DNA of 44,283 nt from Escherichia phage CEC_Kaz_2018, in sequence record NC_073070.1; one strand, written 5' to 3'. Shown piece by piece: positions 37,499 to 37,600 of this stretch (the first letter of the stretch is position 1; the number at the start of each line of letters is the position of its first letter). The notes under the pieces were generated by a model. That model was not told the origin of the DNA. It worked only from the letters and a program-made list of their open reading frames with translations, and searched no databases. The position numbers and the translations under genes are program-made.

Positions 37499-37600
37499 GG
37501 CAACCAATACGACCGACTAAAAGCACGCAAAATGGCAACCAATACGACCAGCATTTAATCATTAACCACTATGGGGATCCCCAAAATGGCAACCAATGCG
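37499..37600. repeat. three direct repeats GGCAACCAAT(A/G)CG (iteron-like) next to AT-rich stretch
   Basis: copies at 37499-37514, 37534-37549, 37588-37600; AT-rich 37463-37498. Confidence 0.7.

Follow-up and report, generated by a model that had tools for sequence, protein, structure and literature searches.

A 530-bp non-coding stretch lies 3' of the primase-helicase gene in the 44,283 nucleotides of Escherichia phage CEC_Kaz_2018 DNA (NC_073070.1) that were analysed here as a whole, hereafter referred to as the window. An initial annotation described three direct repeats in this stretch, here named A, B, and C, beside an AT-rich tract, and proposed these repeats as the iterons of a replication origin. 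Our analysis suggests that the stretch is, on balance, probably a composite of two kinds of protein-binding repeat, with operator-type sites adjoining a separate origin module at 37287-37498 (Table 1). One part of the proposed layout stands, in that the non-coding stretch 3' of the primase-helicase very probably holds the origin, but the assignment of repeats A-C as its iterons is not supported. On comparative evidence, we consider it quite likely that the primase-helicase binds an adjoining array of short TGTCCCGC repeats, opening the DNA and priming there. The suggestion that the primase binds its own origin, as in P4, would by analogy fit this array much better than it fits A-C.

One line of evidence for an origin module is the conservation of its architecture. 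Dhillonvirus, its sister lineage L044, Cornellvirus VSiP, and L022, L024, and L027 all carry the module 3' of the primase stop, with the primase-helicases of the last four 37-44% identical to that of the window. The order of elements after the primase stop is also shared with these four distant lineages, running from box TGAATAGTTATGCA through direct iterons, inverted iterons, two further iterons, and a stem-loop to box ACGGCAGC and a promoter, with the iterons themselves being lineage-specific (GGGGGAGA, TCCGACAG, GGGATAA, and GGGGATGA). The AT-rich tract of the initial annotation is confirmed, ranking second for AT content among 40-bp segments and third among the least stable 50-bp segments genome-wide, and because box TGAATAGTTATGCA, which lies within it, is common to lineages with such divergent primase-helicases, the tract forms part of the conserved module. 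The tract contains the inverted repeat TTATGCA-N7-TGCATAA, the 7-nt centre of which is found in both orientations (ATAAAAC or GTTTTAT) in the close relatives L005, L011, L014, and L016, a pattern that would be expected if the palindrome were subject to hairpin extrusion or template switching.

Next to the tract lies an array of short iterons, seven cores in 100 bp, of which six are direct and one is inverted. Read on the primase strand, four direct copies of GCGGGACA are followed by an inverted one and, beyond a GC-rich spacer, by two further direct copies. The core sequence CGGGAC is concentrated at this and one other locus, with 7 occurrences at 37346-37448, 13 at 20550-20815, and 16 in the other 43.4 kb. 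The imperfect stem-loop that follows the last iteron has comparable folds in seven sequences (both copies in the window, one close relative, and four distant lineages), with its sequence differing between lineages, its fold alike, and RNA z-scores of -1.9 to -4.6. Box ACACGGCAGCA at 37258-37268 and the sequence at 37494-37502 enclose the module as the two arms of a 9-bp inverted repeat (TGCCGTGTA / TACACGGCA), and the promoter of the next operon is positioned ~150 bp beyond this box. No copy of 37240-37620 was found in E. coli genomes and plasmids, and there is thus no sign of a satellite or plasmid borrowing the origin. In a contig with a primase-helicase 45% identical to that of the window (L045, Logan SRR26384698), positions 7700-8340 after the primase gene carry five copies of GCTGCCAAC together with GGGATC palindromes, and a box, ACGGCAGCATGA, precedes the next promoter, as in the window.

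The same iteron array is also found in otherwise unrelated viral contigs. When IMG/VR was scanned for exact matches to GCGGGACAAAGCGGGACA, each Dhillonvirus genome gave two loci, as expected, and 19 arrays were found outside this group. Of these, 17 start at the stop of a helicase gene or no more than a few hundred bp beyond it. A detectable AAA_25 helicase domain, 23-26% identical to that of the window, accompanies 14 of the 19, and three more share a C-terminal motif with them. The primase modules of the array-linked helicases vary, with Prim-Pol and PriCT_2, Prim-Pol alone, and Zn-ribbon and Toprim combinations all observed. Since 17 of the 19 arrays abut helicase genes, what stays constant beside the array is the 3' end of an AAA_25 primase-helicase gene, and the GCGGGACA array following such genes apparently represents a widespread and undescribed candidate origin type. 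Contigs with the distant GCGGGACA arrays contain at most a stray copy of GCAACCAA, the motif carried by repeats A-C. The linkage of the arrays to helicase and not to terminase genes led us to reject a further idea, that of a packaging (pac) or cohesive-end (cos) site. A scan of bacterial genomes for the iteron pair gave scattered matches in unrelated taxa, consistent with chance. The C-terminal motif shared among the viral helicases reads W+xEFY...DTxKKxAFxRA..L..G.I and is present in L046, L053, L059, L064, L065, L067, L068, L074, L094, and others. In each of these contigs a GCGGGACA array lies directly 3' of the gene and converges on a small palindrome.

Within the window, the second concentration of CGGGAC cores forms three sub-arrays, each preceded by TGCATA..TGCATAAA, which fill an unusual gap of 394 bp separating the tail chaperone GT open reading frame from the tape-measure gene. 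The last 176 bp of this locus duplicate 37287-37462 at 83-90% identity, hairpin included, and the locus is conserved in 13 Dhillonvirus relatives and absent from VSiP, the one distant lineage covered, as a query with the tape-measure protein retrieved close relatives only. The GCAACCAA-type motif is absent from this second array at 20.6 kb. The array may represent a second origin, an enhancer resembling the crr element of P4, or something else.

The primase-helicase itself matches a single Pfam family, AAA_25, and is described in PHROGs as a 'replicative helicase-primase'; a Pfam search with its N-terminal 350 residues found no family, and a sequence search of the PDB returned noise and a marginal match to RepA. 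An AlphaFold model built on a 41-sequence alignment (mean predicted local distance difference test score, pLDDT, of 78) comprises an N-terminal alpha/beta domain, a cysteine/histidine-rich region, the helicase core, and a C-terminal three-helix domain with a wing. The best solved match to the helicase core is RSF1010 RepA (Foldseek 1nlf/1g8y; template modelling score 0.66-0.69). Residues 640-750 modelled alone give a pLDDT of 84-90 over three helices, and the top Foldseek matches of this predicted domain are all winged-helix DNA binders, namely the MarR family, including the MepR-DNA complex, PapI, TFE-alpha, histone H1, and LexA. In most lineages, the opening residues of the putative recognition helix follow the class of iteron beside the gene, with GGTSTK/GGTNTT found with GCGGGACA, GG(D/G)RY with GGGGnnGA, and GGxRRP with GGGAT-type iterons.

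Repeats A-C are real, with GGCAACCAATACGACC present twice in perfect form and a third, partial copy present once as GGCAACCAATGCG, and the occurrence of three GCAACCAA copies within 100 bp has a probability of ~1e-5 (Poisson) at the genome-wide density. Their location 3' of the primase-helicase stop is likewise as first described, with repeat C ending 9 nt from the stop if the 13-nt core is taken, or 5 nt if the 16-nt match is, and the start-to-start spacing of the repeats is 35 and 54 bp. Comparison of 17 Dhillonvirus genomes, however, shows a repeat number that is not conserved as it usually is among the four or more regularly spaced direct repeats of an iteron origin, with one copy at the site in 1 genome, two in 9, and three in 7. 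The core of repeat A, ATTGGTTGCCGTG, is invariant in all 17 genomes amid variable flanks, repeat B is kept in 16 and deleted in L008, and repeat C is found in 7. The latter arose when ~54 bp, including the final codons with the stop and a palindrome, were duplicated in tandem. Only in the window are A and B identical over the full 16 nt; the second copy in the other 16 relatives carries the 5' flank GCGCGCATTGGTTGCC, so that the part common to copy 2 of the window and of the other relatives is the core ATTGGTTGCC only. In the three-copy relatives (L003, L005, L009, L011, L016, and L001) the palindrome within the duplication is a perfect 20-bp sequence, GATATGGGAATTCCCATATC, which is shortened to TGGGGATCCCCA in the window and might serve as a weak terminator or as a protein site.

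A fourth copy of the motif, in the opposite orientation, lies on the far side of the iteron module. In the window an N obscures this copy, which reads CTAGGCAACCAATGC in nearly all close relatives examined. L044 also holds two motif copies at the same place as A-C, but with their orientation reversed. The invariance of site A, the near-invariance of site B, and the reversed copies of L044 therefore suggest that these sites are selected as putative orientation-independent binding sites, not as a fixed iteron array. A scan for consensus promoters and terminators over 36.5-40.6 kb found none at repeats A-C or at the hairpin.

The distribution of the motif over the genome is that of a regulatory site. 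As the initial annotation had noticed, A-C carry the same GCAACCAA motif as sites in promoters; it occurs 17 times in the window against 1.88 copies expected, a number reached in none of 100 shuffles, and at these 17 positions the 8-mer is not confined to origin or control loci, as an origin iteron would be. In phage PaulFeyerabend, 17 of the 21 copies are intergenic, most of them within promoters, with intergenic sequence making up 7.1% of the genome (P ~1e-16). At least eight sigma-70-type promoters of the window have the motif within or abutting their -35/-10 elements, in both orientations, including a near-palindromic copy at 7160-7186 (GCAGCCAAT-AG-ATTGGTTGC). Sites of the GCAACCAAT type thus overlap core promoter elements, although A-C themselves are not accompanied by a convincing promoter, and the motif behaves as a repressor-type operator, unlike origin iterons. 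The promoter of the operon containing the primase-helicase gene and a gene for a 109-residue helix-turn-helix (HTH) protein (TTGACA-17-TAGTTT; 40202-40262, minus strand) is followed by the palindrome GTTGGTcattAACCAAC, which is likely an autoregulatory variant of the operator.

The HTH protein is matched by Pfam HTH_23 / Sigma70_r4_2 and, doubtfully, by 'transposase' in PHROGs, and a database search placed all 24 members of its family in Dhillonvirus and the sister lineage. Both the motif and the HTH gene are found in Dhillonvirus and in L044, the primase-helicase of which is 68% identical to that of the window. Where a homologous primase-helicase is present and no such HTH protein is encoded, the motif is missing from the 43 kb of VSiP and present in 0-1 copies per 7-kb locus in L018-L025, L027, and L045. 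The motif is therefore found to travel with the HTH protein and not with the helicase, with the exception of L026, in which GCAACCAAC is present and no HTH homologue was detected. From this co-occurrence, which is the support for the assignment, the 109-residue HTH protein is marginally favoured as the candidate binder of the GCAACCAAT sites.

Taken as a mechanism, the primase-helicase would bind the TGTCCCGC array beside its own gene, by analogy via its C-terminal winged helix, and the bound protein would oligomerise, open the AT-rich inverted repeat and/or the stem-loop, and prime synthesis. The GGCAACCAAT copies would be operator-type sites of an early regulator, most likely the 109-residue HTH protein encoded upstream in the same operon, two genes from these sites. 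Such sites would separate the origin from the 3' end of the early operon, a further one lying on the origin's other side, and as the regulator accumulates it could block read-through into the origin, or occlude or loop it. We speculate that the operator copies couple use of the origin to the early transcription programme. A more far-reaching version, which we regard as doubtful, would combine replication from two loci, GCGGGACA as an origin 'word' shared by unrelated AAA_25 primase-helicases, and HTH operators that gate the primary origin (compare ori/crr of P4 and oriL/oriR of SPP1).

Several observations weigh against this composite reading. We infer which protein binds which repeat, the origin activity, and the coupling role alike, and every assignment of a protein to a site rests on co-occurrence. 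The Foldseek E-values of the winged-helix matches are weak (0.03-0.3), and L022 breaks the pattern of iteron classes, its recognition helix being like that of L024 and its iterons unlike. Furthermore, no homology to the C-terminal domain of the window was detected in those of the helicases with distant GCGGGACA iterons (hhalign probability of 1.5%), and with non-homologous domains beside the same iteron, the reading of the iteron by a winged helix therefore rests on analogy. The module also lacks the central AT-rich segment of the Staphylococcus aureus pathogenicity islands (SaPIs), its inter-set spacer being GC-rich and its AT tract lying on the primase side. The second array in the tail genes is not explained by a simple one-origin model. 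GC skew provides no independent origin signal, since the GC/AT skew of the window tracks gene orientation alone, with no inflection at 37.4 or 20.6 kb, and is therefore unusable for origin calling. Additionally, L026 (IMGVR_UViG_2700989012_000001), with a primase-helicase 45% identical to that of the window and a different C-terminal domain, has ~10 copies of GCAACCAAC, the same 8-mer as the Dhillonvirus operator, after its primase gene. With this array positioned where iterons are expected, a GCAACCAA-type repeat can therefore act like an iteron elsewhere. The 900-bp non-coding stretch of L026 (4760-5540) also contains TTATGCA boxes and a long inverted repeat. Paired GCAACCAAC sequences in IMG/VR were, among the matches listed, mostly coding tandem repeats, with none adjoining a helicase gene.

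The filling of the L026 post-primase region by a GCAACCAAC array also speaks for the initial proposal, in which the GGCAACCAAT repeats would be the iterons, recognised by either the primase-helicase or the HTH protein, and would make up the origin together with the AT tract. Repeats A-C are positioned between the primase stop and this easily unwound tract, site A is invariant in the genus, and the sister lineage keeps two copies in place. Such a role is nonetheless quite improbable given a copy number of one to three, the irregular 35/54 bp spacing, the reversed orientation in L044, and the spread of the motif over at least eight promoters. The motif is moreover missing from the 20.6-kb array and from VSiP, L022, L024, and L027, which retain the post-primase module, and the distant contigs with GCGGGACA arrays hold no more than the stray copy noted above. 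The repeats might instead be part of a regulated leftward promoter reading into the AT tract, with site A at the -35 position of TATAAT/TATAGT (37481-37486), serving in origin activation or in the synthesis of primer RNA, as in lambda ori and T4 oriF/oriG. In nearly every Dhillonvirus genome, site A is followed by this hexamer 13-15 nt downstream, and the motif overlaps -35 elements elsewhere. This promoter is, however, decidedly unlikely, as the consensus scan finds none here, 15 or 11 nt, in place of 16-18, separate TTGGTT or TTGCCG from the hexamer, half of the hexamer belongs to box ATGAATAG, which is conserved in lineages without the upstream motif, and the hexamer is missing in the sister lineage.

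It is unlikely that the TGTCCCGC array and its hairpin act in place of an origin at the RNA or transcriptional level, for example in processing, in termination or antitermination, or as an enhancer of the promoter found after each copy, with the GGCAACCAAT sites part of the same region. Both copies of the array do precede a promoter-like sequence and an operon (37095-37140 is followed by the lysis and head genes, TGATACAAT near 20450 by the tape-measure gene), and the hairpin folds as RNA too, with z-scores down to -4.6. The hairpin is not followed by a T-run, however, the terminator scan is negative there, and no Rfam match was found; furthermore, 17 of the 19 independent arrays neighbour the 3' end of an AAA_25 primase-helicase gene and no particular downstream operon, and VSiP has the post-primase copy only. 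That A-C are neutral local tandem duplications, functionless at this position, appears highly improbable. Copy C and the 16-mer identity of A and B clearly reflect recent duplication or conversion, but neutrality is difficult to reconcile with an invariant site A amid varying flanks, a site B present in 16 of 17 genomes, and the two copies that the sister lineage holds in place in the other orientation.

By analogy, the layout proposed here for the window matches the self-loading initiator-helicase layout of SaPI Rep, P4 alpha, and pRN1, and would be of a kind already known. The SaPI origin lies immediately 3' of rep and its iterons of 5-6 nt are read by a C-terminal winged helix, with primase and helicase fused in PriRep5 (PMC9371898). 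The window resembles the systems of Rep1, Rep2, and PriRep5 in a proposed origin 3' of the helicase gene, short (5-8 nt) direct and inverted iterons, an AT-rich segment, and a winged helix, which in the window is predicted. In contrast to the SaPI Reps, to which no sequence homology was detected, the helicase core of the window is RSF1010-RepA/AAA_25-like, and the AT tract is lateral to the iterons where that of the SaPIs is central. The window also adds a conserved stem-loop, operator sites for a separate regulator, and a second array 17 kb away. In pRN1, replication starts from a stem-loop, conserved in structure and not in sequence, that lies 3' of a primase-helicase gene sharing its operon with a repressor; similar stem-loops have been noted in bacteriophages (PMC4234260). 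The window shares with pRN1 (ORF904 and ORF56) an operon in which a small DNA-binding regulator is followed by a primase-helicase, and a stem-loop just downstream. The pRN1 enzyme has a superfamily 3 helicase, however, no iteron array has been described, and the host is archaeal.

According to the account of Ziegelin et al. 1993 cited in PMC8628076, P4 alpha combines primase, helicase, and origin recognition in one polypeptide. The same combination is proposed for the window, which also has two iteron loci. No sequence similarity to alpha was found, however, and the loci of the window are 16.8 kb apart, with the second inside the tail cluster. P4 carries octamer iterons, TGTTCACC, in both orientations at ori and crr, both of which are bound by the C-terminal domain of alpha. 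For RSF1010, RepA provides the closest solved structure to the helicase core of the window. RSF1010 oriV contains iterons, GC-rich and AT-rich segments, and hairpin priming signals (ssiA and ssiB). Its initiator RepC, helicase RepA, and primase RepB' are separate, however, and its iterons are 20 bp long. The operator sites of the window are similar to those of lambda Cro/CI in that a short motif is repeated in core promoters, a small HTH gene heads the early operon, and a palindromic variant follows the promoter of this gene. They differ in that the HTH protein is of the HTH_23 / sigma-70 region 4 type, many of the sites are single or direct-repeat sites, and a putative origin is flanked by additional ones.

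Dhillonviruses are common E. coli phages, with ~150 genomes in GenBank and some members in the BASEL collection, and no description of a Dhillonvirus origin, of promoter control, or of these motifs was found in the searchable literature. With the two classes of repeat told apart, ~210 bp can be put forward as a candidate minimal origin, along with candidates for the initiator domain and for a global regulator and its operator. The GCGGGACA array after AAA_25 primase-helicase genes would allow origins of uncultivated phages to be annotated by a simple rule based on sequence, and raises the question of how non-homologous C-terminal domains became paired with one iteron.

Table 1. Positions of the repeats, origin-module elements, promoters, and genes in the window.
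Feature	Position	Strand	Remark
Repeat A, GGCAACCAATACGACC (ATTGGTTGCC on primase strand)	37499..37514	plus	overlaps ACGGCAAC octamer at 37497
Repeat B, GGCAACCAATACGACC	37534..37549	plus	
Repeat C, GGCAACCAATGCGCGC	37588..37603	plus	13/16 match to GGCAACCAATACGACC
Palindrome TGGGGATCCCCA	37572..37583		between repeats B and C
Fourth motif site, GGCAACCAATGC	37217..37228	minus	opposite orientation to A-C, far side of iteron module
AT-rich tract	37452..37498		78-80% AT
Inverted repeat TTATGCA-N7-TGCATAA	37454-37474		within AT tract
Conserved box TGAATAGTTATGCA	37468-37481	minus	shared with VSiP, L022, L024, L027
Iteron array, 7 CGGGAC cores (GCGGGACA)	37346..37448	minus	conserved in relatives
Imperfect stem-loop, ~50 nt	37292..37340	minus	directly after last iteron
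Conserved box ACACGGCAGCA	37258..37268	minus	
Downstream-operon promoter, TTGGTTGCAT, 17 nt, TATTTTGGTTGCAC	37095..37140	minus	two motif copies
Second iteron locus	20427..20820	minus	13 CGGGAC cores in three sub-arrays
Motif within promoter spacer	40392 (TTGACA-18-TATCAT), 43197 (TTGACC-17-TAGATT), 7179, 26391, 5489		
Motif over -35 as TTGGTTGCAT	5506, 37129		
Motif directly past -10	26405, 37098		
Further promoter-overlapping motif copies	36565, 34023		
Non-coding stretch, 530 bp	37076-37608		3' of primase-helicase gene
Primase-helicase gene	37609..39861	minus	750 aa
Predicted C-terminal winged helix	37657-37884		~residues 660-735
HTH gene	39872..40201	minus	109 aa, first gene of operon
Divergent promoter region	~40.2-40.4 kb		
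Plus-strand arm		plus	DNA metabolism: nuclease, SSB, PolA, SNF2 helicase, methylases
Minus-strand arm, in order		minus	HTH gene, primase-helicase, 530-bp non-coding stretch, small genes, lysis, terminase, head, tail

The region 36700-39900 matches ~150 genomes of Dhillonvirus (HK578-like E. coli siphophages) at 90-94% identity, with the map of the window a permuted reverse complement of the usual Dhillonvirus map, for which the annotation of PaulFeyerabend served as reference. A total of 70 N bases are scattered over the window, of which that at 37227 masks the fourth GGCAACCAAT site and that at 37361 lies within an iteron. An Rfam search over the whole window matched no family. Repeated segments rich in GACGAAGA at 42415-44043 and 40738-40782 (repeat families D1 and D3) appear to be acidic coding repeats in the plus-strand early genes.

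The most over-represented 8-mer family of the window is ACGGCA[AG]C, with 45 copies against 5.1 expected, at a density of ~1 per kb and with a strand bias of 33 minus to 12 plus. Its copies fall in all three codon frames, and the family therefore represents a DNA-level signal, possibly a priming signal or a Chi-like signal; it also ranks first in VSiP. Two outward-facing copies bracket the iteron module (37259-37266, minus strand, and 37497-37504, plus strand), one of which overlaps repeat A.

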